From NCBI GenBank assembly GCA_949841325.1, contig CATKZK010000005.1:1-59798 (forward strand): a stretch of DNA of 59,798 nt, read 5' to 3'. How positions within the stretch are numbered: the stretch's first letter is position 1; every line of letters starts with the position of its first letter. Below are positions 14,611-59,798 of the stretch, in pieces. The DNA comes from an uncultured Bacilli bacterium. GTDB taxonomy: Bacteria > Bacillota_I > Bacilli_A > RF39 > UBA660. A model generated the notes under the pieces. It ran no database searches. It saw nothing but the letters and a program-made list of their open reading frames with translations, and had not been told where the DNA came from. The translations under genes were made by a program, and so were the position numbers.

Positions 14611-16386
14611 TTAAATAAGGAGAATTCGATAAGTGATATTTATATTAGTTCCCCCAGGTTGACAACCCGCTGTAAATTGACTTCCCATTGAACCATAATA
14701 GTACGCTCCACCTCTCACAAACCAACTATCTGATGCACTAATAAAAGTTATGTTATCTTGATACCAACGACTATGACGATAGTAACTTCCGTTTGCCTCT
14801 TGATAAAAGTATATAGGTCCCATTTCTCCTGTTGCATCTCCTAGGATTCGATAATAGTAAGTTCCATTTGTACTATCTTTATGATAGAGATCAAAGTATT
14901 TACCGTTATAAATTTTAAAAGATTTCTCAGTAAATCCACTTGAATTATATTTGTCTGTTATAAAACTGCTTACATACTCCATAGACCCACCACTCATGTC
15001 ATATACTCCTGTAATGTTTCCTGTTGTACTGGCATTTACACCGACTTTCGTCTGATAAAGTTGCACTTGCAAAGGATCTATACTAAAGGGATTACAAGTG
15101 GAAGGAGTTGTTGTACTCCCATTATAACAAGTATGATCGACAACAGAAGCATATCCTGTTTTATAATTATAATAACTGTTAATTTGCACTTTTTTACTAA
15201 TACCATATTTAGAGTGTGATAGATAAGCAACGGCTCCCCATTCTGTATTTTTCATCATGTGACTATTCAATTCTCTTTTATAAAGATAGGCATTTTCAAA
15301 ACTGTTTTTAGCAGTAATATAACGCCAAGCATATTGATCAGGTTTTATGATAATCTTGTCCACATTTACTTCATTTTTTCTAGCTTCTTTATCTGATAAG
15401 GCATCTTTATAGCCTGTTTCAAATTTTCCTACCCAAAAACCATTTGCCTGAAAACTTTGGAAAGCTGGATGCGTCATCCACTTTCCTACTTCACAATTGC
15501 CAGATTCCCCTGATTCTTTTGGTGATTGACAGGAATTGTCTGAATCAGTAGTTTCTTCTAATGTAAATTCAATTTCAATCACTTGAGCATTCGAAGTATC
15601 CGGTTGTAAAGAAATTGTACTAGTATAATTTCCTAAATTAAATAGTTTATACTTATACTTTGGTATCCACACAAAATAGGATTCGATATCAATTTCTGGT
15701 ATTGTATCTCCTACTTCATATGTTGCTCCACTTTTTAAAATAACCGCATTTGCCCATTTCTTTTCTTCATAGTTATACCACTCAGTGTGTGTATCAGCGT
15801 AGGTTACACTTCCATTATCAGCTATTGTTACTGGAATGAGTTCTTCTTTTAATACAGGATCTGTTCCATTTAAGATATTTTCTTTATATACTGTTTCACT
15901 TCTTATAGTGTCACTTCCTAGTGTTGTTCTTTCTACTGCATTTACTGTTATGGTTATCTCTATTGGAAACTGTATTTCTTCTGTTACTCCTTTGATGACT
16001 TTAAGCGACAAGATTCCTTCTCTTGTTGTTCTTGCTAAAAGGTTACTTGTATCAAAGTCATTGGTGACTTGGAGGTATTCATTTCCATTTGGTACATTGA
16101 TACTTACACTTACATCATAGTTCTTACTTGCATTTGTCACTTCATATTTTAGTTCATATACTTCATCTATTTCTTTTAAGTTAGCTGTAAAAGTAATATG
16201 GGTCTTATCTTGTATTAATGTATTATTCTCAATTCCATTTTCATAAGCCTTACTGAAGTATACATCAAAGTCTTGTGTATTACTTGCTACATTTGTATTT
16301 CCATTTAGAAATAGCGTCGTACTTACTGCGGCAAATCCTATCGACATCAAGATAATAGATAATACTAAAATACTCTTTCTTTTCAT
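14611..16386 (-). CDS. Exported protein: shared N-terminal module plus FGE-sulfatase/C-type-lectin-like C-terminal domain
   Basis: IGFAAVSTTLFLNG leader; FVWIPKY, THPAF, FWVGKFE, EWGAVAYL, GVYDMSGG..EYV, RGG and terminal YR motifs. Confidence 0.75.
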   Translation of the reverse strand: MKRKSILVLSIILMSIGFAAVSTTLFLNGNTNVASNTQDFDVYFSKAYENGIENNTLIQDKTHITFTANLKEIDEVYELKYEVTNASKNYDVSVSINVPNGNEYLQVTNDFDTSNLLARTTREGILSLKVIKGVTEEIQFPIEITITVNAVERTTLGSDTIRSETVYKENILNGTDPVLKEELIPVTIADNGSVTYADTHTEWYNYEEKKWANAVILKSGATYEVGDTIPEIDIESYFVWIPKYKYKLFNLGNYTSTISLQPDTSNAQVIEIEFTLEETTDSDNSCQSPKESGESGNCEVGKWMTHPAFQSFQANGFWVGKFETGYKDALSDKEARKNEVNVDKIIIKPDQYAWRYITAKNSFENAYLYKRELNSHMMKNTEWGAVAYLSHSKYGISKKVQINSYYNYKTGYASVVDHTCYNGSTTTPSTCNPFSIDPLQVQLYQTKVGVNASTTGNITGVYDMSGGSMEYVSSFITDKYNSSGFTEKSFKIYNGKYFDLYHKDSTNGTYYYRILGDATGEMGPIYFYQEANGSYYRHSRWYQDNITFISASDSWFVRGGAYYYGSMGSQFTAGCQPGGTNINITYRILLI

Positions 16387-16422
16387 ATAGAGACCTCCTA
16401 AAGGACGTACTTTCCTCCTGTA

Positions 16423-16453
16423 ATTCTACCATTTTTTTTTTTTTTTTTGTACA
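16423..16453 (-). promoter_or_regulatory. sigma-A-type promoter with A17 homopolymer in the spacer
   Basis: Minus strand TGTAC-A17-TGG-TAGAAT (T17 at 16432-16448 on +); extended -10. Confidence 0.65.
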
Positions 16454-16530
16454 TATGTTTTGGTAGTGCCTATGTAAAACACATCAATTTGTACAGTTTC
16501 TTTACAGAAAAAAACACCCAAACAAGGTGT

Positions 16531-16992
16531 CTACATGCCTCTTCCACGAGTAAATTCATTATTCAAGCGATTATGATAGCTGATAATAGCAAGTTTTTCC
16601 CTTACTTGTCTATCTAAAAAGGAAAGTTTTGCTAAATAATCCTTATATTCTTCATTTTTTAAATGCTTTTTATATTGAATTTCCACAACGGCTTTTAATC
16701 TCGCCACTTCGTCTAATAAAATGAAAAAATCCCCTTCATCACAGTCATCATCATCTTGATATAAAAATTTTAAAATAATTTGTGAAAGACGTTCAAACTT
16801 TTTTTCAAATTTTCTTCTGAGTACATGATTAATCATTTCAGGTTTATAGAGTGTAACACTTTTGACACTAATATAAGGTTTATCACTGGAATTTTTTGGA
16901 TTAAACTTATAGCCTTCCAAGTCATACTCCATATAGACAATTTCTCCTGTTCTTTTGTCTTTTTTAATTAAATAACTACTCATGTCACTCAC
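16531..16992 (-). CDS. Hypothetical protein in the rimM-trmD operon
   Basis: 153-aa ORF starting 4 nt after trmD. Confidence 0.75.
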   Translation of the reverse strand: MSDMSSYLIKKDKRTGEIVYMEYDLEGYKFNPKNSSDKPYISVKSVTLYKPEMINHVLRRKFEKKFERLSQIILKFLYQDDDDCDEGDFFILLDEVARLKAVVEIQYKKHLKNEEYKDYLAKLSFLDRQVREKLAIISYHNRLNNEFTRGRGM

Positions 16993-16996
16993 TTCC

Positions 16997-17659
16997 TTAC
17001 TTTAATAAATCGGGGCGATTCTTTTCTGTTTTTTCTAAAGCACTTTTTTCTCGCCATGCGGCAATTAATTTATGATTCCCACTGATTAATACATCAGGAA
17101 CCTCATGTCCTTCAAAGACTGGAGGTTTTGTAAAAACGGGATAATCTAAACCTTTTTCATTGAAAGACTCCTCTTCTATACTTTCTTTTCTTATTACACC
17201 ATCAATAAGACGAACGACTGCATCAGCAACAACCATCGAAGGAAGCTCTCCTCCCGTCAAGACATAATCACCTATCGATACTTCTTCGTCAATATAATAA
17301 AGAATACGCTCATCAATTCCCTCATAATGACCACAAATTAAAATAAGATGTTCTCTTCGAGCATATTCTTTTGCTTTACTCTCCTTAAAGGTTTTTCCAC
17401 TAGGTGTCAAAAAGATAATATGTGATTTTTCCGTCTTTACAGAACGAATGGCTTCGACAACTGGTTCTACCATCATCACCATTCCTGGGCCCCCACCATA
17501 AGGGGTATCATCGACTTGCTGATTATTCAATTTAGAAAAATCACGAATATTCACAATATCAAATTGAACAAGCTTTTTTTCTATTGCTCTTTTTATAATA
17601 GAACTTGATAAAAAGCCCGTAAACATTTCAGGAAAAAGAGTTAAAATACTAATTCTCAT
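16997..17659 (-). CDS. trmD: tRNA (guanine37-N1)-methyltransferase
   Basis: LTLFPEMF, VDDTPYGGGPGM, CGHYEGIDER, SIGDYVLTGGE. Confidence 0.98.
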   Translation of the reverse strand: MRISILTLFPEMFTGFLSSSIIKRAIEKKLVQFDIVNIRDFSKLNNQQVDDTPYGGGPGMVMMVEPVVEAIRSVKTEKSHIIFLTPSGKTFKESKAKEYARREHLILICGHYEGIDERILYYIDEEVSIGDYVLTGGELPSMVVADAVVRLIDGVIRKESIEEESFNEKGLDYPVFTKPPVFEGHEVPDVLISGNHKLIAAWREKSALEKTEKNRPDLLK

Positions 17660-18144
17660 AGCATCAACTCCTTCACCTGTATCGTCACCTCTACTTGTCT
17701 TTTCTCTTTAAGAATTTGCTTGATAAAAGATCCATTTCTCGGAATATAGTAATGAACAGCGTCATCTTTTACTTCAAACAAAGGATTCCTTCCCTCTTGA
17801 TAATCGACAATTGTTCCCAAAAACTCTCCTTCACACACAATCTTGTATCCTATCATTTCTTGAAGAAGTACTTCGTCTTTTTCTAAGGCAAGTTCCTCTT
17901 TATCGATGTAAACATCACACCCTTTTAAAGGAAGAACTTGATTAATATTATCGTAGCCTTCTAGTGTAAGCATATCAAAATTTTTATGTACTCGATAACG
18001 TTCAATTGTATAGTTTTCCCCTTGAATAAGAATAGAATTTCCCAAAGCAAAAGCGAGATCTTTTCTCTCAAAATCACTCATAAGACGAATCTCGCCTTTT
18101 ATCCCATGTGTATTCACAATTTTTCCTATCCAAATTTTTTCCAT
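17656..18144 (-). CDS. rimM: 16S rRNA processing protein RimM
   Basis: IGKIVNTHGIKGE; upstream of trmD. Confidence 0.95.
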   Translation of the reverse strand: MEKIWIGKIVNTHGIKGEIRLMSDFERKDLAFALGNSILIQGENYTIERYRVHKNFDMLTLEGYDNINQVLPLKGCDVYIDKEELALEKDEVLLQEMIGYKIVCEGEFLGTIVDYQEGRNPLFEVKDDAVHYYIPRNGSFIKQILKEKRQVEVTIQVKELML

Positions 18145-18174
18145 AACATGCCTCTTATTCCCTTTATTATAATA

Positions 18175-18858
18175 TTACTCAGGATCGATTTCAAGTATAT
18201 TGTTGCAGACTAAATTATCATAAATATTTTGCTTTAGCGCGTATTCTTCCTTTGTATTAATCGTATACCCAATAACCATTTTATCCTCTTTTAACTTTTT
18301 TACACGACGATCACTTAACAACTTGATATTGATATTAACAAAATCATACTTTTTAAAAAAATAATTCTTAGTTAAATTTTTTCGATTAATTAAATAACCC
18401 GTAATATAGTTAGGACGATTTTTATAAAACCATTTAAGGGTACGAATATGAAACGATTGGACGGCGAAATCCCCCTTGTATTCATCTAAAATTATCGCCA
18501 CTTTTTTTTCTAAAAGCCTTTTTGAAGTGATTGTCTTTAAATCGATCAAAACAGGTACACTTCCAGCAACAAGATCTAGCACTTCTTCTAACGTAGGCAC
18601 TTGATATTTAGCAATATAACATAACTCATCATACGTAATTCGTTCAATATTTCCCTCAACATGTAAAAGTCTTTCCATATTTTGATCATGAAATACAACA
18701 CATGTCCCATCACTTAAAAGACGAACATCAAATTCGATTATATATTGATGTTTAATAGCTCTTTGAATGGCACTAATTGTATTTTCATAAATTCTTTTAT
18801 TATCATAAATTCCCCGGTGGGCAATTAAACGTGTCTTTAAAAAATGTAATTCTTTCAA
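18175..18858 (-). CDS. Glycerophosphodiester phosphodiesterase
   Basis: IAHRG, ENT, IEFDV, VVFHD. Confidence 0.9.
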   Translation of the reverse strand: MKELHFLKTRLIAHRGIYDNKRIYENTISAIQRAIKHQYIIEFDVRLLSDGTCVVFHDQNMERLLHVEGNIERITYDELCYIAKYQVPTLEEVLDLVAGSVPVLIDLKTITSKRLLEKKVAIILDEYKGDFAVQSFHIRTLKWFYKNRPNYITGYLINRKNLTKNYFFKKYDFVNINIKLLSDRRVKKLKEDKMVIGYTINTKEEYALKQNIYDNLVCNNILEIDPE

Positions 18859-18970
18859 TTTTCTTCACCTTACCCATTATACCATGTTCTTCCCATCTGA
18901 GTAAATGAAGTTTCCCTTTAAATTTAATGAAATAAAAAAGAAAAATCAAAGGCCAAAGATGCTTTGATTT

Positions 18971-19675
18971 CTATTCATAAAAATGATGTAGAAGAATACT
19001 GGTAGCCATTGCTACATTTAAACTTTCACAAGCAGGATTCATAGAAATGTGAATTTTTTCATGAGCATATTGGGAGACCTCATCAGATACTCCTGCCCCT
19101 TCATTACCAACAATTAATCCAAAAGGCTTTTTTACTTTCACTTCTTTTAGTGAAGTTCCCTCTAAAACATCCGTTGTATAAAACGTCATTTCCTGTTCCT
19201 TACTTTTTATAAAATCTCTTATATCAGTCACTATATAATTCATTCTAAAAAGCATACCTTCACTGGAACGCAATACTTTCGTATTATATACATCCACTGT
19301 ATGAAAAGAGGCAACAATCGTATCGATTCCAAAGGCAACAGCACTTCTAATAATAGTTCCTAGATTCCCTGGATCTTGAAGACCATCAAGAAGCAAAACA
19401 TTTCCTTTTATCTCCCGCGAATCCATCATTTTACATACAGCAAGAACCGTAGGTGGTGTTGTAAGTCCTGAAAGCTTTTTCATCACTTCACTACTTACTT
19501 GTGTGGCATTTTCACGTTCCTCTAATGAAAAAAATTCTACAACTTCTCCATGTTTTAAAGCTTCTTCAACCAGATGTTCTCCTTCGATGATAAACTGATG
19601 CATCTTGTCTCGATATTTCTTCATCTGCAATTTAGCAAATTCTTTTACTCGTTCATTTTGTACAGATGTAATCAT
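18971..19675 (-). CDS. TrmH/SpoU RNA methyltransferase
   Basis: QDPGNLGTIIRSA, GNEGAG, ESLNVA. Confidence 0.93.
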   Translation of the reverse strand: MITSVQNERVKEFAKLQMKKYRDKMHQFIIEGEHLVEEALKHGEVVEFFSLEERENATQVSSEVMKKLSGLTTPPTVLAVCKMMDSREIKGNVLLLDGLQDPGNLGTIIRSAVAFGIDTIVASFHTVDVYNTKVLRSSEGMLFRMNYIVTDIRDFIKSKEQEMTFYTTDVLEGTSLKEVKVKKPFGLIVGNEGAGVSDEVSQYAHEKIHISMNPACESLNVAMATSILLHHFYE

Positions 19676-20313
19676 TCTCTTAGCTCCTTCCTTGCTTCTT
19701 TATATCTTGGGTAATGAGCTTCTACACATTCCCAAAATTGTTTTGAATGGTCCATATGGGAAAAATGCGAAAGCTCATGAACAATTACATAATCAATGAG
19801 ATAAGGTTTCTTATGAATTAAAAGAGAATTTAAAGTAACAGTCATACTCCCTTGATTACAAACACCCCATCTACTTTTCATCTTCCGAATTCGAAGGCGA
19901 AATTTAGGAAGAGAGGCAAAGGAATTTTTATATAAATCCAACCGACTTTGAAAATAAGGGAGTGCATGTTTTTCTAAATAGGCGTTAATATCATCTACAG
20001 ATGGTCCAAATGCCATATTCCCTTCAAACATAACTTTTTTATAATAGACAAAATCCATCTCTTCTCCTAAATAGAGGACTTTTTCCACCCTTTCATTTCT
20101 TTTTTTCGCTTTTTCCCACATTTTCTCAAGAGATTTACGATTTTTTTCTAAGAGTTCATCGATCATCTTTTTTGTCACTTTCTTTGAACAAGTCACATAA
20201 ATTTGCATTTCCTCATTAATCCGAAAATAGATATTTTTTATTTTCTTATATTCAACGATTACTTCTACTTCATGTCCATTTAATTCCATTCTCTTATTCT
20301 CTCCATAATTCAT
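19672..20313 (-). CDS. YgjP-like (DUF45) zinc metallohydrolase
   Basis: MKSRWGVC, YVIVHELSH, HSKQFW. Confidence 0.88.
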   Translation of the reverse strand: MNYGENKRMELNGHEVEVIVEYKKIKNIYFRINEEMQIYVTCSKKVTKKMIDELLEKNRKSLEKMWEKAKKRNERVEKVLYLGEEMDFVYYKKVMFEGNMAFGPSVDDINAYLEKHALPYFQSRLDLYKNSFASLPKFRLRIRKMKSRWGVCNQGSMTVTLNSLLIHKKPYLIDYVIVHELSHFSHMDHSKQFWECVEAHYPRYKEARKELRE

Positions 20314-21145
20314 ACATATTTTTTAGTTCTTCTTTTGTCTTCCCCACTCCATACTGGAAGGTTTCTTTTACATTCTTCCAGGAAATATCAAGTTCGCTTT
20401 TAATTGAATCAAAATCTTTTTTTAATGTTTCACATTGCTCTTTATCTTCCTCACAAAGGGTATTAACAAATTGTAAATACTGGGCAATTAATTTTGTCTT
20501 CATGGAAGTAATTTTTTTATCCACTGTTTGCTTATATTTTGGAAAGTGTTTTTCAATCTTATGATCTATCAATAGTAGATAATATACCACTTTCGCTTTT
20601 GAAGTATCTTTCAACTCAGCAAATGTTACACCATTGATTTTTCCTTCAAAAAAAACAAAATCAATCATCTCATTTACAAAGGTTTTCGCCTCTTTAGATA
20701 TCTTTTTTGAAGAGCCATCAAAACTTTTTTCAAACTGCTTGATTTTGGCAAGAAGATTTTCTTCTTGTTTTAAGGGAAGTGTCGTATGTATTTCTTCTTT
20801 CTTTAAAGATTCCTCTGATACGACCGTTTTTTTCATTTCTTCAGCACCCACTAAAACTCGCACTTCATTTGGCGTAATACTCTTGAATTCATCATCAAAA
20901 TAAGTGACTAAAATAAAATCTCCCTTTTCTAGTGGTTCTCTAGTATTGATTAACCATTCTTCTGTTTCTGATACAGGAATCACTTTTACATATTCCTCTG
21001 TTGTCTCTAAAACAGTGGCATAAAGTGTATTTACAGTCTCTTTCTTTTTATCTGACTGAAAGGAAACTTGATGAATAAGAAAAAAAGCAAATCCGCCAAT
21101 AAGAATAGTAAAGAAAAAGAGAACACTAAATGTTCGTTTTTTCAC
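20294..21145 (-). CDS. Membrane-anchored hypothetical protein
   Basis: N-terminal TM helix; overlaps der stop and downstream start. Confidence 0.75.
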   Translation of the reverse strand: MKKRTFSVLFFFTILIGGFAFFLIHQVSFQSDKKKETVNTLYATVLETTEEYVKVIPVSETEEWLINTREPLEKGDFILVTYFDDEFKSITPNEVRVLVGAEEMKKTVVSEESLKKEEIHTTLPLKQEENLLAKIKQFEKSFDGSSKKISKEAKTFVNEMIDFVFFEGKINGVTFAELKDTSKAKVVYYLLLIDHKIEKHFPKYKQTVDKKITSMKTKLIAQYLQFVNTLCEEDKEQCETLKKDFDSIKSELDISWKNVKETFQYGVGKTKEELKNMYELWRE

Positions 21146-22455
21146 TTTTCTTCGCCCCGATTCTTAAATTGTAAAATGATTGGACTACCTTCTAAATCAA
21201 TCGATTCTCTTATCTTATTTTCTAAATAACGTCGATAAGAAAAATGAACAAGAGATTTTGAATTCACATGGAAAGTAATTTTAGGTGGCTCACTGCCTGT
21301 TTGATTGACAAAATAAATCTTTAATCTTCTTCCCTTGTAAGATGGTGGCTCGTGTAGCGCAACGGCATCCCTTATAATATCATTTAAAACACTCGTTTTT
21401 ATTTCCTTTGTATAAGAAGAATGAGCCTTGATAACGGCAGGCATAAGCGTATGAATACGAGTTTTCATCATTGCCGATAAGAAAATAACAGGGACATAAG
21501 GAATAAATTGAAACTCATTTTCGATTTTTTTCTTCCATTCTTTCATAGCTTGATCTTTATTTTGAACGGTATCCCACTTATTGACAACTAAGACAATGGC
21601 TTTTCCAAGTTCTAAGGCGTAAGATACAATATGCTTGTCATGTTCAATAATTCCCGCATAGGCATCTAATACCACTACACAAACATCACTTCGCTCCATT
21701 GCTTTAAGACTACGAATTAACGAATACTTTTCAATGTTTTCATAAATTTTTCCTTTTTTACGCATTCCTGCAGTATCAATGACTAAGTAATCTTGATGTT
21801 CATAGGTAAATCTAGAATCGTTGGAATCTCTTGTAGTTCCTGCAATATCAGAGACAATTTGTCTTTCACTTCCTAAAAGAGCATTGACTAAACTACTCTT
21901 CCCCACATTAGGTCTTCCAATCACCGAAAAGCGAATTGCTTCATCTTTTGGTTCTGTAAGGTAAGGAGAAAAGTCATGTACTATCTCATCTAATAAAACA
22001 TTGATATTGCGTTTATGTTCTGCAGAAACAGGAATAATAGGATCAAAGCCTAGTTCATAATAGGCATATACTTTATCTTCATGTACTTTATCGTCAATTT
22101 TATTTAAGGCAACAATGACTCTTTTTTTACTACGTATAAGTAAATCTCTTACAGCTATATCATTAGACGTAATTTCTTCTTTTCCATCGACGACAAAGAC
22201 AATCACATCTGCTTCTTCTATCGCTATTTCTGCTTGCAAACGAATATTTTCATTGAATGTCGCATTTTCTAAATCAATTCCTCCTGTATCAATAAGAGAA
22301 AATGATGTATCTTTATAATTTACAATTCCATAAAGTCGATCTCTTGTTACACCAGGTAAATCATCAATGATGGCTTTTTTTTCTCCAATAAGGCGATTAA
22401 AAAGTGATGATTTTCCCGTATTAGGTCGTCCAATCAAACATACAGTTTTTCGCAT
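21142..22455 (-). CDS. der: Ribosome biogenesis GTPase Der
   Basis: Two G domains GRPNxGKSS, DTGG/DTAG, NKxD. Confidence 0.98.
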   Translation of the reverse strand: MRKTVCLIGRPNTGKSSLFNRLIGEKKAIIDDLPGVTRDRLYGIVNYKDTSFSLIDTGGIDLENATFNENIRLQAEIAIEEADVIVFVVDGKEEITSNDIAVRDLLIRSKKRVIVALNKIDDKVHEDKVYAYYELGFDPIIPVSAEHKRNINVLLDEIVHDFSPYLTEPKDEAIRFSVIGRPNVGKSSLVNALLGSERQIVSDIAGTTRDSNDSRFTYEHQDYLVIDTAGMRKKGKIYENIEKYSLIRSLKAMERSDVCVVVLDAYAGIIEHDKHIVSYALELGKAIVLVVNKWDTVQNKDQAMKEWKKKIENEFQFIPYVPVIFLSAMMKTRIHTLMPAVIKAHSSYTKEIKTSVLNDIIRDAVALHEPPSYKGRRLKIYFVNQTGSEPPKITFHVNSKSLVHFSYRRYLENKIRESIDLEGSPIILQFKNRGEEK

Positions 22456-22516
22456 TGTTCTCCCTCCTTTTTATTGCTCTTATTTTAACAGAAAAAATCC
22501 CGTTTGGCAAACGGAA

Positions 22517-23116
22517 TTACTTGCGAAGTCTAGGATATTCTTGCCCAAGTGTTGGAGTATTGCTTACGACATCACACTTTGCTTTATCAAATGTCGTATA
22601 AACACGGTTATATTTATAATAAACGTATACATAGCACTGATTAATAATATTGTTTGTATGAGGATTAATGACAATATCATTGTAGTTTTTCTTTTCTTCA
22701 TCTGTCGAACAATTCAGACAGACATCTTTTTCATCATATTCTAAGTCATGACTGCCAATTAAATCTTCAACAGTTGTTCGAATACACCAGTACTCGTTTT
22801 CTGAAAGAGAGGCAGATTCACTATAGGTTTTAGGAATATAATCGATGCCCTTAATTGTATCTCCTTCAATTTGTAGTTTACAAGTATGATGACTTGATGT
22901 GTTTTCTATATCCATTCCTGTTCTTACAAAAGCCAAATTGGTCTGTCCATAACTTGAAGCGGCTTGTTCAATTAATTCAATCTTTGTGTCATAAGCTTTC
23001 TTTTTCACATTTCCTGCTAGTTTTAAAGAGGCTGGAAGGGCAATCGCTAAAAGTAAACCAATGATAACAATAACCGCTAATAATTCTACTAATGTAAACG
23101 CATTTTTCTTCTTCAT
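22517..23116 (-). CDS. Type IV pilin-like protein
   Basis: Class III signal KKKNA|FTLVELLAVIVIIGLLLAIALP; Cys-rich head. Confidence 0.9.
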   Translation of the reverse strand: MKKKNAFTLVELLAVIVIIGLLLAIALPASLKLAGNVKKKAYDTKIELIEQAASSYGQTNLAFVRTGMDIENTSSHHTCKLQIEGDTIKGIDYIPKTYSESASLSENEYWCIRTTVEDLIGSHDLEYDEKDVCLNCSTDEEKKNYNDIVINPHTNNIINQCYVYVYYKYNRVYTTFDKAKCDVVSNTPTLGQEYPRLRK

Positions 23117-23207
23117 TTTTATCTCTCACCTATTATAAATTCTAACAAAAAACAAAAGAATTGTCTATAAATTCTCTTGTTTTCAAAGTGGGCTTGACAG
23201 AACCTTT

Positions 23208-23798
23208 TTAAACTTCTTCTAAATAAGAGCTTAGAATCGAATAAAGTTCTTCTCTTCCCTTTTTAGTTACAGAGGAAAAAATTACAAGTTTATCATTTGG
23301 CATTAATTTTAGGGATTCCTTTAGATTTTTCTCACATTTGTCTTTTTGACTGGCCTTCACTTTGTCAAATTTTGTTGCGACGACAACAGTTGGCAGTTCA
23401 TAATATTTTAAAAAATTATACATTAAGATATCATTTTCTGTTGCTTTATGACGAAAATCAATAAGTAAAAAGACACATTTTAAATTTTCTCTAGTGGTCA
23501 AATATTCCTCAATCATAAGACCAAACTTTCTCTGCTTTTCTTTAGAAACATCGGCAAATCCATATCCAGGAACATCTACTAAATAAAAAGCATTGTTTAC
23601 AAGATAAAAATTAAGAGTTTGTGTTTTTCCTGGTTTTCCTGAAGTATGAGCATAATTCTTACGACCTAAAATTGTATTAATAAAACTACTTTTTCCAACA
23701 TTACTTCGTCCACATAAGACAAATTCTGGCAAACCATCTGTTGGATACTGACTTGTTCTAACCGCGATAGTCTCTAAATTTGAAGATTCAATTTTCAT
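23208..23798 (-). CDS. engB: GTPase EngB/YsxC
   Basis: GRSNVGKSS, PGKTQTLNFY, DVPGYG, TKFD. Confidence 0.97.
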   Translation of the reverse strand: MKIESSNLETIAVRTSQYPTDGLPEFVLCGRSNVGKSSFINTILGRKNYAHTSGKPGKTQTLNFYLVNNAFYLVDVPGYGFADVSKEKQRKFGLMIEEYLTTRENLKCVFLLIDFRHKATENDILMYNFLKYYELPTVVVATKFDKVKASQKDKCEKNLKESLKLMPNDKLVIFSSVTKKGREELYSILSSYLEEV

Positions 23799-23926
23799 AA
23801 TATTCTCCCCTCACTTGTCCTTATTATAATAGATTTTTGTTTTCTTTTCAATTCATACATCACATTATTTTTATCAAAAGGCTTTCAAAAATAAGGAGAA
23901 TACGTTATAATGGAAATGGTGATACT

Positions 23927-24493
23927 ATGTTTTATCCAGGTAATAAAACAAAGGAATATAAAAAGAATATCAACTATGCCAATCGTGGAATGGATCTAGA
24001 AGATATGATTAACCAAAGTAATACTTATTACTTAAGTGAAAATCGAGCAGTCATCTATAAAAAACCGACACCCATTACAATCAGTGAAGTGAGGTATCAA
24101 AAAACAGAAAGAGTCATTACGAAGGCGTATTTTAGAACCCCTTCTACACTAGATTATAATGGTTTATATAGAGGCATATATTTGGATTTTGATGCCAAAG
24201 AGACTAAAAACAGGACTTCATTCCCTCTGAGTAACTTACATCACCATCAATATGAACACATAAAAAAAGTGATTGAACATGGGGGTATTTCTTTTTTAAT
24301 TATCTACATGAATGGCTTATTTTTTTATTTAGATGGGCATGATATCATTGATTTTATAGAAAATTCGACAAGAAAAAGCATTCCCTATTCGTTTATCGAA
24401 ACGAATGGACATCCAATAAAGCAAAAAATAAGACCTCGTTTAGACTATTTAGAAATTATTGATACACTTTATTTTAAGGAGGGATCTCATTGA
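23927..24493 (+). CDS. recU: Holliday junction resolvase RecU
   Basis: NRGMDLE, KKPTP, DYNGLYRG..DFDAKET; ATG 23927 preferred. Confidence 0.96.
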   Translation: MFYPGNKTKEYKKNINYANRGMDLEDMINQSNTYYLSENRAVIYKKPTPITISEVRYQKTERVITKAYFRTPSTLDYNGLYRGIYLDFDAKETKNRTSFPLSNLHHHQYEHIKKVIEHGGISFLIIYMNGLFFYLDGHDIIDFIENSTRKSIPYSFIETNGHPIKQKIRPRLDYLEIIDTLYFKEGSH

Positions 24494-27400
24494 CAACAAA
24501 GAAAAAAACAACCAAGAAGAAAACAAACTCTTCCCCAAAATTGCCGCCAACAAAACAAAAAAAGAAACTAAACCAAGAACTTATTTTAAAATATGGGCAA
24601 ATCTTTTTACATTTTATTGTCACTTTTTTTGTAACTTTGCGTAAAGTTTCCTTAAATTGTGTAAAAAAGATTAAAAAAAGGAAGAGAAAACAATATAATA
24701 CTGTTAGACAACGCACGGATTATTCAAAAGAAAAAAGCAATACCCTAAAAGATAAGGAAGAACAAACACCTGTTTTGCTCTCCTACCAAGGGATTAAAGG
24801 AATAAAGAAAATTCCTATTTTCTTTAAAAATAGAATAAAGGTGATGAAATACGATATGAAAAAATTTAAGAAAAAATTTAAATATGGAACATTAAAAGAT
24901 AAACTGCTGATTATCTTTATGATTGGACTTATCTCGATTATCTCCATTGGTATTTGTTTTTGTGGATTTATTATCCTAAATGCTCCAGAAGTAAATGAGG
25001 AAAGACTCTATAAAAATAATTCGACCATTCTTTTAGATGCTGAGGGTAATGAATTTGCAAGACTTGGTCTTGAGAACCGCGAGAAATTAACCTATGATGA
25101 ACTTCCTGAGGTTTTAATCGATGCCATTGTTGCAACAGAGGATTCGCGTTTTTTCCAACACAATGGAATCGATTTGGCCCGTTTTATCAAAGCTTCTTTT
25201 GGACAAATTCTTGGAAATTCTAATGCAGGTGGTGGTTCGACACTTACGATGCAAGTTTCAAAAAATGCAGCAACCAATCGAAATGCTCACGGTCTTGCAG
25301 GAATTATCCGAAAATTTACCGATATCTATCTTTCTGTATTTGTCTTAGAAAAACAATATACAAAAGAACAAATTATGGAATTTTACGTTAACATACCTGA
25401 TTTAGGTGCACGCGCATTTGGTGTAGAACAAGCCAGCCAAATCTATTTTGGAAAATCTGCAAGTGATTTAAACTTAGCCGAAGCAGCAATGATTGCGGGG
25501 TTATTTCAAGCTCCTACAGCCTTTAATCCATATGCGCATCCAGTCGCTGCGGAAAACAGACGAAATATTGTATTAAATCTGATGTACCGTCATGGGTATA
25601 TTTCTGAACAAGAACGTGATGCTGCTAAAGCAGTTCCTGTAAAGAGTCTACTTGTTGGGCAAAAATCAAGTGTCAATAACTATCAAGACTTTATCGATAC
25701 ATTACATTATGATGTTATTAATAAAACAGGAGACAATCCAAATTATGAATCGATGATTATTCATACGACCTTAATGCCAAAGAAACAAGATGTTGTCGAT
25801 AAAATTATGAGAGAAGGTGTAAAAAACTTCCGTTGGAAAAACGATAAAGCTCAAGCAGGTATTGCTGTTATCGATGTCGATACGGGTGCTATTGTCGCTG
25901 TTGGAGCATCTCGTGATGAAGCCGCACTTGTTACAAACTTTGCAACAGAAGTTCCAAGACAACCTGGTTCCACCGCTAAACCAATTCTCGATTATGGTCC
26001 TGCCATTGAATACTTAAACTGGGGAACAGGTCAAACCATTATTGATGAAAAGTACTCTTATTCAAGTGGTACAAGCATCAAAAACTGGGATAATAAATTT
26101 AAAGGAGTCATGACGATTAAAACAGCTCTAGCACAATCTCGAAATATCCCTGCTCTCTTTGCTTTCCAACAGACGACCAATGAACAAAAAGCTGAATTTG
26201 CAGCAAACTTAGGTTGGAGTCCAGAGACAAATGGCAATGGAACGATTTTAGAATCTTGCTCGATTGGTGGATTTGACGGTGTTACTCCTGTTCAATCAGC
26301 TGCAGCATTTGCTACATTTGCACGAGGCGGAACTTATATTGAACCCTTTACATTTACTAAAATAGAATACGTTGATACTGGCGAAGTTTATGAAAATAAA
26401 CCAAAAAAAGTCGTTGCAATGAGTGAAGAAACCGCATACTTAATCAATGTTATCTTAAAATATGCGGTAACGAGTGGACAGATTGGTACAGGTTCTATCA
26501 GTGGAACAGACATTGCAGCAAAAACAGGAACATCAACGATTGATGCATCAGCTAAAAAAGCCTATGGTATCAAAGCAAATATTATTGGAGATTCTTGGGA
26601 AGTTGCTTACTCTCCTGATTATGCCATATCAACATGGTATGGATATGAACCGCGTATTAGTAAAGACTATTACTTAACAGGAACAGAAGGTGGTAATGCC
26701 CGTAAAGAGTTTACCAAAGCTTTAGTAAAAGGTATTATGGAAAAAAATTCACGATTTAAGAAGCCAAAAGGTATTGTCTCTGCAGAAATCGAATTAGAAA
26801 CTGATCCAGTACAACTAGCAAGTGCACATACACCAAAAGAATTAAGAAGTACAGAATATTTCAAAAAAGGTGCTGCTCCAACGGATGTATCATCACGTTT
26901 TGACACTTTAGCAAATCCAAGTAATTTGAAATACTCTTCTACTGCTTCTTCGGTTACCTTATCATGGGATGCAACTCCTACGCCTAAGGCCATTGATCAA
27001 AATTACTTAACAGAGTATTTTAACAATTCTAAAATATATAAACCATGGGCTAATAACTACTTAAATAAACGCATAAGTTATAACAATTCGACATTTGGAT
27101 CGTTTGGATATCGAGTCTATTTAAAAAATGCCTATGGCACCCAAGATTTAGGATTTACAACAAATACGACATTCACAACCAATGTACAATTTGATGCGAC
27201 GACAACCTTTATCGTCAAATCATCTTACCAAAAATTTACGGCAAATCAATCGACAGGTATATCTGTAGCTGTTGCTCCAAATTCACAGAGCAATAACAAC
27301 GTACCATCGACAACAAATCCATCACAAAGTACTACAGCTGCTGCTTCAAACTTGAATATTTATTATCTAGGTCCTCAATGTTCAACTGTTGATGATTATA

Positions 27401-27624
27401 AAGCATTAGGTTCTAATCCTCGTGATAAGATAAAAGTTGTAGCAGATGGTCAAGATGTAACATCTAGTGCTAATATAACAGCAGAATGTTGCCTTGCTGA
27501 TAATTTAGATAGCTGTGGCCACTGTAGTAATTTAGTAAGTGGTACAAAGTATTCGATTACATTTACTGTAAAATATCAAAAGTTAGAAAGGAATAAAATT
27601 GTAACCCTTTCATCTAGTTGTTAA
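24490..27624 (+). CDS. ponA: Class A penicillin-binding protein PBP1A with long basic N-terminus and FN3-like C-terminus
   Basis: EDSRFFQHNGID, GGSTLTMQ, STAK, SRN, KTG; recU-ponA synteny. Confidence 0.93.
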   Translation: MTTKKKTTKKKTNSSPKLPPTKQKKKLNQELILKYGQIFLHFIVTFFVTLRKVSLNCVKKIKKRKRKQYNTVRQRTDYSKEKSNTLKDKEEQTPVLLSYQGIKGIKKIPIFFKNRIKVMKYDMKKFKKKFKYGTLKDKLLIIFMIGLISIISIGICFCGFIILNAPEVNEERLYKNNSTILLDAEGNEFARLGLENREKLTYDELPEVLIDAIVATEDSRFFQHNGIDLARFIKASFGQILGNSNAGGGSTLTMQVSKNAATNRNAHGLAGIIRKFTDIYLSVFVLEKQYTKEQIMEFYVNIPDLGARAFGVEQASQIYFGKSASDLNLAEAAMIAGLFQAPTAFNPYAHPVAAENRRNIVLNLMYRHGYISEQERDAAKAVPVKSLLVGQKSSVNNYQDFIDTLHYDVINKTGDNPNYESMIIHTTLMPKKQDVVDKIMREGVKNFRWKNDKAQAGIAVIDVDTGAIVAVGASRDEAALVTNFATEVPRQPGSTAKPILDYGPAIEYLNWGTGQTIIDEKYSYSSGTSIKNWDNKFKGVMTIKTALAQSRNIPALFAFQQTTNEQKAEFAANLGWSPETNGNGTILESCSIGGFDGVTPVQSAAAFATFARGGTYIEPFTFTKIEYVDTGEVYENKPKKVVAMSEETAYLINVILKYAVTSGQIGTGSISGTDIAAKTGTSTIDASAKKAYGIKANIIGDSWEVAYSPDYAISTWYGYEPRISKDYYLTGTEGGNARKEFTKALVKGIMEKNSRFKKPKGIVSAEIELETDPVQLASAHTPKELRSTEYFKKGAAPTDVSSRFDTLANPSNLKYSSTASSVTLSWDATPTPKAIDQNYLTEYFNNSKIYKPWANNYLNKRISYNNSTFGSFGYRVYLKNAYGTQDLGFTTNTTFTTNVQFDATTTFIVKSSYQKFTANQSTGISVAVAPNSQSNNNVPSTTNPSQSTTAAASNLNIYYLGPQCSTVDDYKALGSNPRDKIKVVADGQDVTSSANITAECCLADNLDSCGHCSNLVSGTKYSITFTVKYQKLERNKIVTLSSSC

Positions 27625-27650
27625 AAGAGGTAAAAAAAGCCTCTTTTTTT
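27625..27650 (+). terminator. Intrinsic terminator after ponA
   Basis: AAAGAGG...CCTCTTT plus T run. Confidence 0.65.
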
Positions 27651-27736
27651 AGTGAATAATATCGATTTCTTAGGCATAATTTTGCATTTTTTCTAATAAT
27701 ATGGTAATATAGCACCAATTCGAAGGGGGATATATT

Positions 27737-28036
27737 ATGAATTATCAAGATTTCCTAATTGAGGTCAAGACAAAATGGACAAAATGTACAGACGGTTATG
27801 AAAGAGAAATCATTCAATACAACTGTATTCCTGGCGAGGTTATCGATAAACCAATCTTTGCATGTCGCTACTTAAATGCTATCAATCACAAGACAGAAAA
27901 AAAGGATCATATTGATTCTAATGAAATGATTATTCATGCGATTTATACTAAAAATCATGAAGAAATCAAAACACCAACAGAATTGATAAAATGCTTACTT
28001 GACTATACAGAATATCAATGGAAATACGAAGGCTAA
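27737..28036 (+). CDS. Hypothetical protein
   Basis: AAGGGGGA RBS, own terminator at about 28030-28050. Confidence 0.65.
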   Translation: MNYQDFLIEVKTKWTKCTDGYEREIIQYNCIPGEVIDKPIFACRYLNAINHKTEKKDHIDSNEMIIHAIYTKNHEEIKTPTELIKCLLDYTEYQWKYEG

Positions 28037-28135
28037 AGCAGCCTTTTTTTCATTAACTTTCTACTTTTAAGTTGACTCTCATTGCTTCCCTATTGTATAA
28101 TTATTATGGAATAGAATAGATAGGGTTGATTTTAC

Positions 28136-30382: not shown

Positions 30383-30399
30383 TCAAATGCTTTTTATTT

Positions 30400-30809
30400 T
30401 TAAGTAACTTGTACCCCTTTTACAACATTTGAATAACTTGATTTGGTTGCAATCATTTTATCGACTAATGTGGACGCATCAGCTGTATAATTCTCCATGA
30501 TTTTAGCATTTGAAGCGATAACTGTATATAGAAACATCATTTCATATACAGTACAATTTGTTCCTCTTATTGTAATTGTAGTTAATAAATTACCGCAATC
30601 TGTAAAGAGACAACTTTATTGTTACTTTACTTACATCAACCCCTGATAAATCTAAAGTTTTCAAATTATTACAGTTGCTTGAGACGTATCAAAACCATGT
30701 ACATCTAAACTTACTAAATTTATGTTTATCATCTCAGCAAACATGAAAGACATATTTCTTACTTTTCTCGTATCATGGCTACTACTGGAATAATCATTTT
30801 CTTTGTCAT
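30400..30809 (-). pseudogene. Collapsed relic of a DUF285/BspA LRR surface-protein gene
   Basis: MTKKMIIPVVA start joined to frameshifted pieces DTRKVRNMSFMF, CNNLKTLDLS and TITIRGTNC..YTADASTLVDKMIATKSSYSNVVKG, matching the other paralogs. Confidence 0.82.
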
Positions 30810-31115
30810 AGCTTTCACTTTCCTATTATTATCATTTAAAATATTTTTGCCAGTTATTATATATATGTATTCATTTTTACAAAGAAAAAAGAGAATTCAA
30901 AGAAAAGAACTCTATATAAAAGATTGTGCGAAAAATTTAAACATAAAAAAGGACTTTTGACAAGTCCTCTGTCTAAACGATTTTGTGCTTGATTTTAAAA
31001 TAAAAGTAGTAAATTAGTAGTAAACTGGTATCGAAAACTTTTGCATAAATCTATAAATAAAGGCTTTTATAGTTAAATTACAATTTTTTAAGAAAAAAAG
31101 TGTATTTCTACACTT

Positions 31116-31988: not shown

Positions 31989-32000
31989 TCTCTTCTCTCC

Positions 32001-32933: not shown

Positions 32934-32939
32934 TTTTCT

Positions 32940-33072
32940 CACTCTCTTTCGTTTTACTTCCAAGTACCTAACTACTCTCCAACCAAAGGGTCACTAGAAG
33001 AGCATACATGTACTTGTGTTTATTTGGTATGAAAACCAAGTTTACTATATCAAAAAAGAGAAACTTTATCAA
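32940..33072 (-). promoter_or_regulatory. rpsB-tsf promoter and structured 5' leader (probable S2 autoregulatory RNA)
   Basis: TTGATA-17-TATAGT with TG; leader pairing CAAGTAC/GTACTTG and CTCTTC/GGAGAG. Confidence 0.55.
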
Positions 33073-58000: not shown

Positions 58001-58166
58001 TTTATCACCATCCTGTTTTCATTTTATCATACATTTGTTTATTGTGCTACATTTTCTTTGTCGTACACTTCTTTTTTTACGACAAAAAAATGATCATTTT
58101 AACAAAAAAAGATTGTCAAAATTTAACTATTGTTAATACACTATAGTAGATAAAGGAGGTATATAA

Positions 58167-58352
58167 ATGTACTATTACGGATATAATGGTAGCTATGGTA
58201 TGCAACAAAATCCTTGTTGTGGACAAACACCTGGATTCGCTGGTTACACAACTGGTGGATACTCATGGGGAGCTGCCTTATGGATTGTCTTATTTATCTT
58301 GCTTGTAATCATAATAGGTGCTGGATGGACTGGCAACTACAATAATGACTAA
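58167..58352 (+). CDS. YjcZ/SscA-family small sporulation protein
   Basis: G/Y-rich N-terminus plus ALWIVLFILLVIIIGA; AAGGAGG RBS. Confidence 0.8.
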   Translation: MYYYGYNGSYGMQQNPCCGQTPGFAGYTTGGYSWGAALWIVLFILLVIIIGAGWTGNYNND

Positions 58353-58371
58353 CAAGAAGTTCTATTTATCT

Positions 58372-58401
58372 AAAAAATCAAGGAATACCCTTGATTTTTT
58401 T
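58372..58401. terminator. Bidirectional intrinsic terminator
   Basis: AAAAAATCAAGG-AATAC-CCTTGATTTTTT between convergent genes. Confidence 0.75.
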
Positions 58402-58402
58402 A

Positions 58403-59798
58403 TTAAAATGTTATTATCCCGCCTTTTTTTACCTTGGATGGTGAATCCGTTCCATTGTACTTTGTACCTATCATCCCATCAACTAAACTAGAAGCATCTG
58501 CTGTATAGTTTACTGTAATTTGGGCGGTTGATGAAGTTGCAGCAACATGGAACATCAATCTCCAATTCGTGCACTTTGTTCCTCTAATATTTATCGTTGT
58601 AATTACAGCATAGCTTTGATAAAACATACAAGACATATTTGTTACATTACTTGTATCAAAGTTGCTTATCTTTAGTGTCTTTAAATTCACACAATAGCGA
58701 AACATAGAGTTCATATCGGTTACATTACTTGTATTAAAGTGATTTAAATCTAAGGTTATAAGGCTCTCAACCCAAGAAAACATATTGTTCATATCGGTTA
58801 CGTTGTTTGTATCAAAGTTACTTATATTTAAACTCGTTAAACTGTGACACCTAGAAAACATAAAACTCATATCAGTTACATTCCCAGTGTTAAAATGACC
58901 TAGATTTAAAGTTTTCAATTCACGGCAGGTATAAAACATTCTGTTCATATTTGTTACTTTACTTGTATCAAAACTATTTAAATCTAAACTTGTTATAGCG
59001 CTAGAATTCGATCCAGAACCTCCCATATCAAACATAGAGCTCATATCGGTTACATTCTCTGTATTAAAGTTGCTTAAATTGAATTCTTTCAACTTACCAC
59101 AATTATAAAACATTCTACTCATATTGATGGCTTGACTAGTATCTAACTTTTCTAAGTCAACGATACTGATTAGATTTGTAAAACCTTCAAATAAACTACT
59201 TGAATCTGGATTGGCAATAAATGGCGCTTTATCTTTTCCAATATATAGTTCATATAAATCATTTTGGTTTTCATCTAAAGTATAAACCATAATACTTCCA
59301 TCTTGTGAACCCGATGCATCCCACGCCTCCATTGCATTATCTGGAACAGCTTTATCTTCTATAAAAGTTATCTTTTCTACCTTACTCCGATCAAACTCAT
59401 GTCCAAAGAAGGTTTTCGTATCAGATCCAGCTTCCAGCATTGGTTCGTCTTTTTCTTCTATTCCTCCCGCTATGTCATTTTCATTTATCTCTGTTTTCTC
59501 AACCGCATTTCCTTTTATTTCACAAATAATACTAATTTCCATTTCTTCCAATGGATTTTTGATGACTTTTAGAGTTAATTTCCCTGCTCTTTTTGTTCTT
59601 GCTGGTAAGATTTCTTCTATATCAAATTCATTACTCACTCTTAAAAAGTCACTTCCTCCTGTACAGTTCATTAAAAGACTTGCATCATATTGTTTAGAAG
59701 CATTCGTTACTTCATAGTCTAGTACATACTCTTCATCTACTACTCTTAGTTCTGTAGTAAATTCTAAGTGGTTTCTATCTTTGATGATACTACTATTT
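58403..59798 (-). CDS. Shared-N-module plus DUF285/BspA LRR surface protein (5' end outside window)
   Basis: Frame open to the window edge (NSSIIKDRNHLEF..YEVTNASKQYD); about eight LxL..FxTxxVTxMxxMF repeats. Confidence 0.9.
   Translation of the reverse strand, partial: NSSIIKDRNHLEFTTELRVVDEEYVLDYEVTNASKQYDASLLMNCTGGSDFLRVSNEFDIEEILPARTKRAGKLTLKVIKNPLEEMEISIICEIKGNAVEKTEINENDIAGGIEEKDEPMLEAGSDTKTFFGHEFDRSKVEKITFIEDKAVPDNAMEAWDASGSQDGSIMVYTLDENQNDLYELYIGKDKAPFIANPDSSSLFEGFTNLISIVDLEKLDTSQAINMSRMFYNCGKLKEFNLSNFNTENVTDMSSMFDMGGSGSNSSAITSLDLNSFDTSKVTNMNRMFYTCRELKTLNLGHFNTGNVTDMSFMFSRCHSLTSLNISNFDTNNVTDMNNMFSWVESLITLDLNHFNTSNVTDMNSMFRYCVNLKTLKISNFDTSNVTNMSCMFYQSYAVITTINIRGTKCTNWRLMFHVAATSSTAQITVNYTADASSLVDGMIGTKYNGTDSPSKVKKGGIITF

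Follow-up and report, generated by a model that had tools for sequence, protein, structure and literature searches.

Dispersed modular surface proteins of an uncultured mouse-gut Bacilli bacterium share an N-terminal module related to small proteins encoded beside a SipW-type signal peptidase

What unites surface proteins that start with the same N-terminal module, end in unrelated domains and are encoded at dispersed positions? This question is raised by three genes on a 59,798-nt contig (CATKZK010000005.1 of assembly GCA_949841325.1; henceforth the window) of an uncultured mouse-gut Bacilli bacterium. The window is the entire contig C5 of a metagenome-assembled genome (MAG) of 1.34 Mb (65 contigs; completeness 92.8%), has a GC content of ~32% and comes from an organism detected in mouse-gut sequencing runs of 13 studies. 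An earlier note on this DNA had proposed the shared module to be a polymerising or anchoring subunit of an undescribed fibre that displays interchangeable binding domains under stochastic switching. Based on homology and a conserved gene neighbourhood, a SipW-linked, putatively polymerising module with interchangeable binding domains is the best-supported reading, the acidic β-sandwich of the module being best read as a diverged member of the pilin domains in the AbpX/TasA superfamily. Fibres of this class have meanwhile been described, namely TasA, Tafi and AbpX, in papers of 2022–2026.

All three genes map to the minus strand at the positions first given for them. Gene 1 (14611–16386) encodes 591 amino acids (aa), i.e. 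a leader and N-module (aa 1–162) followed by a ~425-aa C-terminal domain with FGE-like motifs (C-terminal class 3). Gene 2 is split by a nonsense codon into a 5′ part (34341–34928; 196 aa) that covers leader, N-module and linker, and a 3′ part (33129–34322), a 397-aa open reading frame (ORF) in the same frame that encodes a PARCEL/DUF285 leucine-rich repeat (LRR) domain and a C-terminal extension. Gene 3 (58403–59797; at least 464 aa) is truncated on its 5′ side by the contig end, which leaves its leader outside the window, and consists of a partial N-module and a DUF285/PARCEL domain. The claimed module of ~160 aa was recovered in pairwise comparison: residues 1–162 of gene 1 share 57% identity with gene 2 (E 4e-51), and gene 3 is 47% identical to gene 1 over residues 54–159 (E 8e-26). 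The assignment of the C-termini held for genes 2 and 3, in which DUF285 (Pfam E 1e-63 and 3e-51) and the PARCEL model TIGR02167 (E 5e-66 and 1e-57) match with high significance; the FGE-like label for gene 1 is weakly supported. Gene 1 carries no DUF285/PARCEL repeats, its C-terminus had no Pfam match at E≤0.1, and sub-threshold matches to PF03781 (FGE-sulfatase) occurred in 5 of 17 homologues (best E 0.0078) and in none for gene 1 itself; searched against the PDB, a profile reached 5vf4 at E 0.019. The proposed LRR relic was likewise recovered on the minus strand (30403–30816), where a stretch with at least six stops matches the final ~125 aa of members of the DUF285 class (tblastn E 6.5e-28) and is the decayed C-terminus of such a gene.

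Instead of the three to four copies initially reported, the genome holds a large family. The N-module gave 49 matches in a six-frame search of the whole genome, and an iterated search of all genome ORFs with a hidden Markov model (HMM) yielded 44 family ORFs, 19 of them cut by contig ends by our own count, that together encode 15,402 aa or 3.4% of the genome. The leader motif, searched as a regular expression, was found in 34 ORFs, one of them spurious, leaving 33 leader-bearing ORFs; the number of family genes thus likely lies in the mid-thirties. In keeping with the earlier description, none of the 44 ORFs has an LPxTG motif with tail or a C-terminal membrane segment, and no family protein starts with a lipobox-type leader. 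Outside this genome, a profile built from 20 paralogues matched 1712 cluster representatives at E≤1e-3 (327 at E≤1e-30), in which the module is invariably N-terminal and protein length ranges from 103 to 1917 aa. Named records among these relatives derive from uncultured gut Bacilli MAGs (mouse, rabbit and Hadza people) and from Firmicutes CAG:582, several of them with multiple copies. Of 200 genomes sampled evenly across the class, five had a family match (E≤1e-5), and expansion was restricted to the genome studied here. No Pfam or NCBIfam model matched the N-module, the best being a sub-threshold CBM-like match (E 0.003–0.016); leader and module provide a sequence definition for a family that is without a model in the libraries used, despite its 1712 cluster representatives. 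None of the papers listed by the literature searches describes such a family, and none was returned that joins DUF285 with TasA, albeit the supplements of a preprint on AbpX may list similar bacterial loci.

Within the genome, the N-terminal unit is combined with at least eight C-terminal classes that lack mutual similarity, which bears out the interchangeable tips of the earlier note. Eight members belong to the DUF285 class, five to a class of unknown function ending in 'GARLLRY', five to an ALK/LTK glycine-rich class and two to the class of gene 1, and four further classes comprise 2, 2, 1 and 1 members. The exchange is evident from N-modules that are 80–92% identical and joined to C-termini without BLAST similarity; gene 1 and the family member at C30:14124, for instance, share a module with 92% identity and nothing beyond it. 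A Pfam search of 20 members from this genome assigned five to DUF285 and six to ALK_LTK_GRD and left nine without a match, and the partners in external relatives include Flg_new, DUF6273, Laminin_G_3 and GBS_Bsp-like domains. Thus, swappable C-terminal domains are carried on a conserved module.

The earlier note had suggested a search for SipW-like peptidases and for subunits consisting of the module alone, and both were found, side by side. The genome encodes five signal peptidases (SPases) of the archaeal/SipW type over the NCBIfam cut-off, in addition to one of the LepB type. One of the five (C8:23375–24517; TIGR02228, E 1.9e-19) is polytopic, i.e. a polytopic N-terminal domain is fused to a peptidase in which the Ser, His and Asp motifs are present. 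It is directly preceded by a small, module-only family member of 211 aa (C8:22695–23330; isoelectric point (pI) 4.4, 13.8% Asp/Glu) and directly followed by a DUF5305 protein (C8:24524–25669; PF17231, E 4.4e-15). Two other module-only proteins are candidate pilins: one at C52:2492–3037 and one at C48:6043–6624, which adjoins a second copy of DUF5305.

The trio of small protein, polytopic peptidase and DUF5305 protein recurs in other loci (L066, G154, G123 and, from another family, G039), and in G021 no DUF5305 gene was seen. In all six loci reached via family matches, a small leader-bearing protein is encoded beside the polytopic peptidase. When the peptidase was searched for across the 200 genomes, near full-length matches were obtained in 16, the present genome included, and all five family-positive genomes were among them. 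In 14 loci chosen by the peptidase alone, DUF5305 was adjacent in 13 and a small protein of 174–217 aa with the leader pattern hG(F/Y)A(A/S)..(S/T)..L.I.G in ten. Taken together, a small protein (160–217 aa) lies directly upstream of the polytopic peptidase in 16 of 20 loci, and DUF5305 is adjacent in 18 of 20; some of these loci encode an additional, larger protein (466–786 aa) with the same leader. The window genes themselves are dispersed and lie outside any peptidase/DUF5305 locus.

What connects them to these loci is homology. An alignment of the window family (A1) and one of 22 small SPase-adjacent proteins (A4) matched each other in hhalign with 99.3% probability over 147 columns (E 1.8e-20), and the HMM of A4, which had also retrieved the C52 candidate pilin, recognized gene 1 (E 3.3e-14) and gene 2 (E 7.6e-17). 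Searched against the PDB, the A4 profile matched the AbpX structures 9sj2 (E 1.1e-5, over nearly the whole chain) and 9rhp (E 9.2e-5) and, weakly, TasA (5of1, E 0.056; 8aur, E 0.068). The TasA/camelysin family Peptidase_M73 (PF12389) matched no window protein at E≤0.1 and none in the genome; it appeared below threshold in 4 of the 22 small relatives (best E 0.0011) and was found in 1 of 121 genomes of the class.

The four further SipW-type peptidases are of ordinary size (C7:18216–28705, C54:2469–6835 and C60:506–1926). Two of them, on C7, adjoin small proteins with TasA-type leaders (..GTYARYTS.. and ..TYSRYIS..) and giant proteins of 945–971 aa, and one of the small C7 proteins shows a weak match to the small-pilin HMM (E 1.7e-4). 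The genome therefore appears to harbour several SipW-dependent systems. It also encodes three sortases over the cut-off, with sorting-type tails (VPxTD or SPQTG) on three proteins. Sortase genes adjoin family members at C26:1–3358, C6:5767–8335 and C11:17181–19096, those on C26 and C6 also adjoining proteins that end in the unusual VPxTD motif. Because sortase and LPXTG genes are reported near bacterial abpX loci in passages of the AbpX preprint (bioRxiv 10.64898/2026.01.04.697558), the sortases and VPxTD proteins possibly serve as wall anchors for the fibre.

Family members share a basic start (MKRK or MKKK), a hydrophobic stretch and the motif IGFAAVSTTLxLNG, followed by an acidic β-sandwich of ~120 aa. 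In gene 1, the leader (aa 1–29; 16300–16386, minus strand) comprises MKRK, the hydrophobic stretch and IGFAAVSTTLFLNG, which would hold both the peptidase site, between GFA and A, and the donor strand. Leader and strand form the most conserved block of the protein, with a mean majority fraction of 0.76 over positions 14–29 as compared to 0.50 in the domain (150 representatives). The N-modules are acidic (median pI 4.6 and 15.7% Asp+Glu among 20 of them), and so are AbpX homologues, with a pI of ~4 and ~15% Asp/Glu according to the AbpX preprint, which also describes the first 16 residues as unstructured in monomer predictions (bioRxiv 10.64898/2026.01.04.697558). An AlphaFold2 (AF2) model of gene 1 residues 1–169, based on 47 sequences, placed a helix over residues 3–22, including GFAAVS, and a confident seven-strand sandwich over residues 42–152 (predicted local distance difference test (pLDDT) ~89). 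The intervening residues 25–34, i.e. the conserved TLFLNGNTNV, scored below 50. The sandwich part of gene 1 (aa 30–162; 15901–16299, minus strand) is supported by the hhalign match to the small SPase-adjacent proteins. In the monomer model, the STTLxLNG stretch is undocked from the domain, and the same applies to the corresponding strand in a model of the small C8 protein (mean pLDDT 73.4).

Structural searches were less telling. Neither the N-module model nor the small-pilin model had a Foldseek match at E≤1e-3, so that the comparison with TasA/CalY suggested by the earlier note came out without a significant match. With VIA-align, the small C8 model matched the TasA fibre 8aur (Z 5.4; root-mean-square deviation 3.6 over 141 aligned residues), the Sulfolobus 0406 thread 7pnb (Z 5.1) and AbpA 7ueg (Z 4.9), all in the non-specific range; these matches fell within the top 50 of 48,161 chains and had the longest alignments (139–141 residues). 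Leads in the ESM Atlas were, for the small C8 protein, a camelysin cluster (TM-score 0.49) and one at 0.94 in which 22% of the members are Peptidase_M73 and, for the module of gene 1, another Peptidase_M73 cluster (0.87).

A second feature shared by many family genes is a run of A's immediately 5′ to an extended −10 box, ~35–45 nt before the ATG. In front of gene 1, this is an A17 tract (16432–16448, minus strand; poly-T on the plus strand) that abuts the extended −10 box TGGTAGAAT (16423–16431, minus strand) on its 3′ side; a terminator-like hairpin (16512–16532, minus strand) separates this promoter from an upstream gene of 153 aa. Across 18 genes of the genome, the runs measure 19, 18, 18, 17, 17, 17, 16, 9, 8, 8, 7, 7, 7, 6, 6, 5, 4 and 4 nt. 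Tract lengths are bimodal, with medians of 7 and 17.5 by our own arithmetic and modes that lie one helical turn apart. Genome-wide, 14 A/T runs reach at least 11 nt; 12 of these, the gene 1 tract included, reach at least 16 nt, and all 12 sit 5′ of an extended −10-like box, which reads TGnTAnAAT in nine cases, GTGGTAAAAT and GTATAAT in others and is cut by a contig end in one. Downstream of the 12 long runs follow a family leader (eight), a contig end (two) or other genes (two). The latter are the A17/T17 tracts at C10:20062–20078 and C12:25097–25113, one before a GDPD-like gene and the other before a short membrane ORF of 98 aa. In one promoter subfamily, 40-nt flanks are 85% identical and the A run varies from 4 to 18, and promoter runs of 14–20 occur in related MAGs (L031–L104); length variation is thus seen among paralogues and between species. 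A search of a metagenome collection with the gene 1 promoter pattern returned 0 matches and then three chance matches in unrelated genes.

About 12 members, gene 2 included, have a second type of upstream unit that is without a tract and consists of a hairpin, a T-run, TATAAT and a conserved 5′ leader. The unit of gene 2 (34929–35018, minus strand) contains a 13-bp hairpin (34997–34967), a T-rich run and TATAAT, and no long A tract. The conserved 5′ leader of this class contains CTTTGTCGAAAGACTTT, and the related TTGTCGAA occurs upstream of the small pilin gene on C8; these elements may constitute a regulator site.

These data lead us to propose, with a confidence slightly better than even, that the products of the window genes are alternative adhesins of a fibre of the AbpX/TasA superfamily, serving at its tip, as nucleators or as decoration, with a leader that is cleaved, a strand that is donated and, for many members, expression that is switched by A tracts. 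Sec would export the family proteins, and the polytopic peptidase at C8:23375–24517 with its DUF5305 partner would cut near the A–A bond of GFAA. The conserved N-terminal strand freed in this way would be inserted into an adjacent subunit's groove (donor-strand complementation), with the module-only pilins at C8:22695–23330, C52:2492–3037 and C48:6043–6624 as candidate partners. Each family member would then be one of the options for the tip, the nucleator or the decoration of a single fibre type, and single adhesins would probably be turned on and off by slipped-strand changes in A-tract length, in the manner of Mycoplasma hyorhinis vlp. Stochastic switching via poly-A promoters is a plausible reading of the tract lengths, and, more tentatively, the gap of one helical turn between their modes suggests that the phasing of an upstream element relative to the −10 box sets the ON and OFF states.

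Several observations weigh against this proposal. With one exception in 74 related family loci, no peptidase is encoded within 6 kb, which leaves almost the whole family without linkage to the machinery. The window-family profiles (A1 and A2) matched nothing in the PDB and a gene 1 search nothing relevant, and the link to AbpX is therefore transitive, via A4. The AF2 domain is already seven-stranded, and an open groove is not evident from its secondary structure. Moreover, the VIA-align search with the N-module was non-specific, returning generic immunoglobulin (Ig), PapD and MSP sandwiches (best Z 7.0) and no TasA, Abp or Taf entry among its top 50 matches, and the Z scores of the small pilin with TasA, 0406 and AbpA are below the level considered meaningful for the tool. 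AbpX is described as a cleaved, polymerising protein whose donor-strand hallmarks are an aromatic amino acid in position 2 plus an acidic one in position 4 (bioRxiv 10.64898/2026.01.04.697558). This signature is not seen in AVSTTL(F/Y)(L/I)NG, which has no acidic residue, a comparison in which the register is uncertain and the cleavage site inferred. As to switching, a simple scan found no canonical −35 element at the gene 1 promoter, so that ON and OFF lengths are not assignable, and both contigs and reads break at the tract (16423–16461), which renders length heterogeneity within the population unreadable.

The alternative that survives best concerns the promoters alone and, though we rate it below even, has a real chance of being right: the A tracts might be a fixed A/T-rich architecture, such as UP-like or curved DNA, whose lengths reflect old divergence of paralogues rather than phase variation. 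Reads that yielded no length data from within a population are compatible with this, and so is the fact that around half of the tract-bearing promoters have runs of 4–9, which are less prone to slippage, and ~12 members use the tract-less promoter class. There is also a precedent in M. agalactiae, for which the T tract upstream of the vpma promoter is described as playing no role in switching (PMC2268961). Static promoters, however, would not lead one to expect the tract to be by far the most variable element between otherwise similar flanks, nor all A/T runs of 16 nt or more in the 1.34-Mb genome to fall into this one context. In addition, 4 of the 12 long runs are no more than 100 nt away from a contig end, as would be expected if reads disagree there.

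An OFF state of gene 2 did not hold up as a switch: the in-frame TAA (34338–34340, minus strand) is a plain TTA>TAA nonsense change, at a position where paralogues on C17 and C22 and the related-MAG loci L054 and L047 have TTA (Leu), and a 98%-identical 196-aa ORF (P0003) with the same end point is present in another assembly. Because of the TTA in paralogues and related loci and the same ORF in a second assembly, the codon is a real, inherited nonsense mutation and not a slippage switch. An alternative genetic code or readthrough was rejected, since paralogues read TTA at this site and other TAA codons end genes normally. When four sequencing runs were compared over window positions 16000–35100, contigs from other samples carried two further changes in gene 2, namely a 78-nt deletion at 33562–33641 that corresponds to one 26-aa PARCEL repeat (runs X2 and X8) and, in the N-module at 34576–34762, a 185-nt stretch in whose place stand 20 different letters (runs X2, X8 and X10). 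The number of repeats thus differs between strains, which are also mosaic in the gene 2 module.

Turning to the protein, the module could be a signal-anchored stalk, in which the leader stays uncleaved as the anchor, the sandwich is a spacer, GFAAVSTTLxLNG serves membrane insertion or interaction at the membrane face, and no fibre is formed. We consider this unlikely, even though it would accommodate the single continuous AF2 helix over residues 3–22 that includes GFAAVS, a seven-strand sandwich that could be complete, fold matches of a generic Ig-like kind, the lack of any other anchor in the 44 ORFs and the 73 of 74 related family loci without a nearby peptidase. A plain anchor, however, would not usually be far more conserved than the domain it carries, as the leader block is across the 150 representatives, and the homologous small proteins adjoin a dedicated peptidase in 16 of 20 loci and match AbpX, which is cleaved and polymerises. 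The organism furthermore encodes a PBP1-type wall synthase, and a stalk of ~120 aa would barely clear a Gram-positive wall.

Less likely still is that the proteins are cleaved and not polymerised, i.e. that a SipW/AbpX-type leader has been borrowed for export and the module acts as a folding, solubility or non-covalent wall-binding domain of adhesins and enzymes. The dedicated-peptidase context would be identical, the FGE-like, glycine-rich and Laminin_G payloads could work as free proteins, and structural evidence of a groove is missing; yet the post-cleavage strand STTLxLNG, which export alone does not need, matches the presumed cleavage site in its degree of conservation, and the module shares homology with AbpX-type, module-only proteins along 147 columns. 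Other routes were dismissed on motifs: type IV pilins lack support because no N_methyl motif (cleavage between G and FTLxE) or PF07963 match occurs in family proteins and the hydrophobic stretch precedes the conserved G, lipoproteins for want of a lipobox, and double-glycine leaders served by the C39 exporter of the window for want of a GG motif.

The window members of the family are surrounded by core genes, namely tig, trmD, rimM, der, tsf, rpsB, dnaJ, dnaK, grpE and hrcA, further housekeeping neighbours being smc, rnc, tgt, queA, ruvAB and a class A penicillin-binding protein gene; the family members thus stand as single insertions between core genes. In locus L066 of a related MAG (positions 1–7500), trmD and a 150-aa gene are followed by a core locus of small pilin, polytopic peptidase, DUF5305 protein, 587-aa leader-bearing protein and DUF285 family member. 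In the stretch of the window compared with it (14611–17659), gene 1 occupies exactly the equivalent position, and the present genome has its own core locus on contig C8. Elsewhere, the window encodes an ATP-binding cassette exporter with a C39 peptidase domain (2806–4812; bacteriocin or double-glycine type) and, at 6802–10326, a tyrosine recombinase (6802–7695), an unknown gene of 328 aa and a secreted protein of 529 aa that has cadherin-like domains and weakly matches DUF5305 (E 0.005). At 22517–23116, a type IV pilin-like gene matches N_methyl PF07963, and a 748-aa T2SSE/PilB-type ATPase with long low-complexity ends (28136–30382) is directly followed by the DUF285 relic. Between smc and a lipoprotein-like gene (41510–42055) lies a Glu/Lys-rich ORF of 1053 aa (42747–45908) without a Pfam match. 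An Rfam scan of the window found no RNA family.

Descriptions to date present fibres of the TasA, AbpX and Tafi class as biofilm matrix or as bundling pili encoded in single compact loci. Tentatively, and with a probability that we would put below even, the present genome points to one donor-strand machinery that serves ~35 dispersed, independently switchable adhesins, in which a shared strand and module carry unrelated payloads, tips combine by chance and an A tract beside an extended −10 box acts as the switch. If so, a reduced-genome gut bacterium would have turned a pilin domain into a universal attachment handle and would devote 3.4% of its genome to swappable, possibly individually switched adhesins. 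Such an arrangement would join the tip-adhesin logic of FimH to switching of the Mycoplasma Vlp type in an uncultured lineage of the gut, add walled gut relatives to the mycoplasmas from which homopolymer-promoter phase variation is known, and offer a testable model for surface attachment (host or microbial) and immune evasion by uncultured small-genome Bacilli. Related copies are found in mouse, rabbit and human gut MAGs.

Among known systems, the AbpX type (Pyrodictium abyssi; PDB 9SJ2/9RHP) is close in make-up. Its loci in archaea and in Bacillota/Chloroflexota are reported to encode an SPase I with ten transmembrane segments, a DUF5305 accessory protein, minor subunits and tip proteins (bioRxiv 10.64898/2026.01.04.697558). 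Likewise, the loci described here combine small acidic pilin-like proteins with a many-transmembrane SPase I and DUF5305, include larger proteins with the same leader that could be minor or tip subunits, and show an N-terminal strand that is unstructured in monomer predictions. In contrast, the window genes belong to dozens of dispersed fusions to unrelated payloads outside the core locus, and the passages of the AbpX preprint that deal with these loci mention neither phase-variable promoters nor gene expansion.

A similar likeness exists to the haloarchaeal Tat-fimbriae (tafi). In this system, the multi-transmembrane peptidase TafD is described as processing the pilin and TafG as a DUF5305 protein; the pilins are TafA and TafE, and in models the two-domain tip TafC donates its N-terminal strand with a lectin-like domain facing outward (PMC11821415). 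Strand donation is reported as confirmed by a Natrinema structure (PMC12337348). The dedicated multi-transmembrane signal peptidase, DUF5305, small pilins of the donor-strand type and, in some external members, a Laminin_G_3 domain recall this arrangement. Tafi pilins, however, use twin-arginine translocation (Tat) signals, whereas the family leaders are without a twin arginine or RR motif in our alignments, and a tafi operon has one tip gene as opposed to the dispersed repertoire seen here. In the TasA–TapA–SipW system of Bacillus subtilis, subunits of the fibre donate their N-terminal strands, the first of which comes from an accessory protein (as summarized in PMC11821415). Here, too, a signal peptidase of the endoplasmic reticulum/archaeal type has putative cognate substrates, and small proteins give weak TasA profile matches. 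Unlike TasA, the window module and the genome lack Peptidase_M73, the peptidase is polytopic and accompanied by DUF5305, and the module has about half the size of TasA.

Promoter-based switching is best known from the vlp genes of Mycoplasma hyorhinis, for which the ON length is reportedly 17 A's. In vlp, as in maa2 and vmm, the homopolymeric or repeat tract is located at the −10/−35 spacer and indels switch transcription (PMC2268961, citing Citti & Wise 1995). The family resembles vlp as a variable set of surface proteins with a homopolymer in the promoter, exemplified by the A17 that abuts TGGTAGAAT upstream of gene 1. It differs in that its proteins are not lipoproteins, the host is walled and tract lengths are bimodal (~7 and ~17.5).

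Among surface proteins of Gram-positive bacteria, WxL proteins carry their name-giving domain at the C-terminus. The Enterococcus WxL/Elr pilus is set apart by its description, which comprises a WxL module, a chaperone-guided pathway and sortase anchoring (bioRxiv 10.64898/2026.10.17.759780). Proteins anchored by sortase combine LPxTG with a hydrophobic tail and a basic end, an arrangement found in 0 of the 44 family ORFs. BspA/PARCEL (DUF285) LRR surface proteins share the payload of genes 2 and 3, which consists of PARCEL repeats; this likeness covers one of at least eight C-terminal classes, and the NCBIfam lipoprotein model Mbov_0838 scored far below its cut-off.

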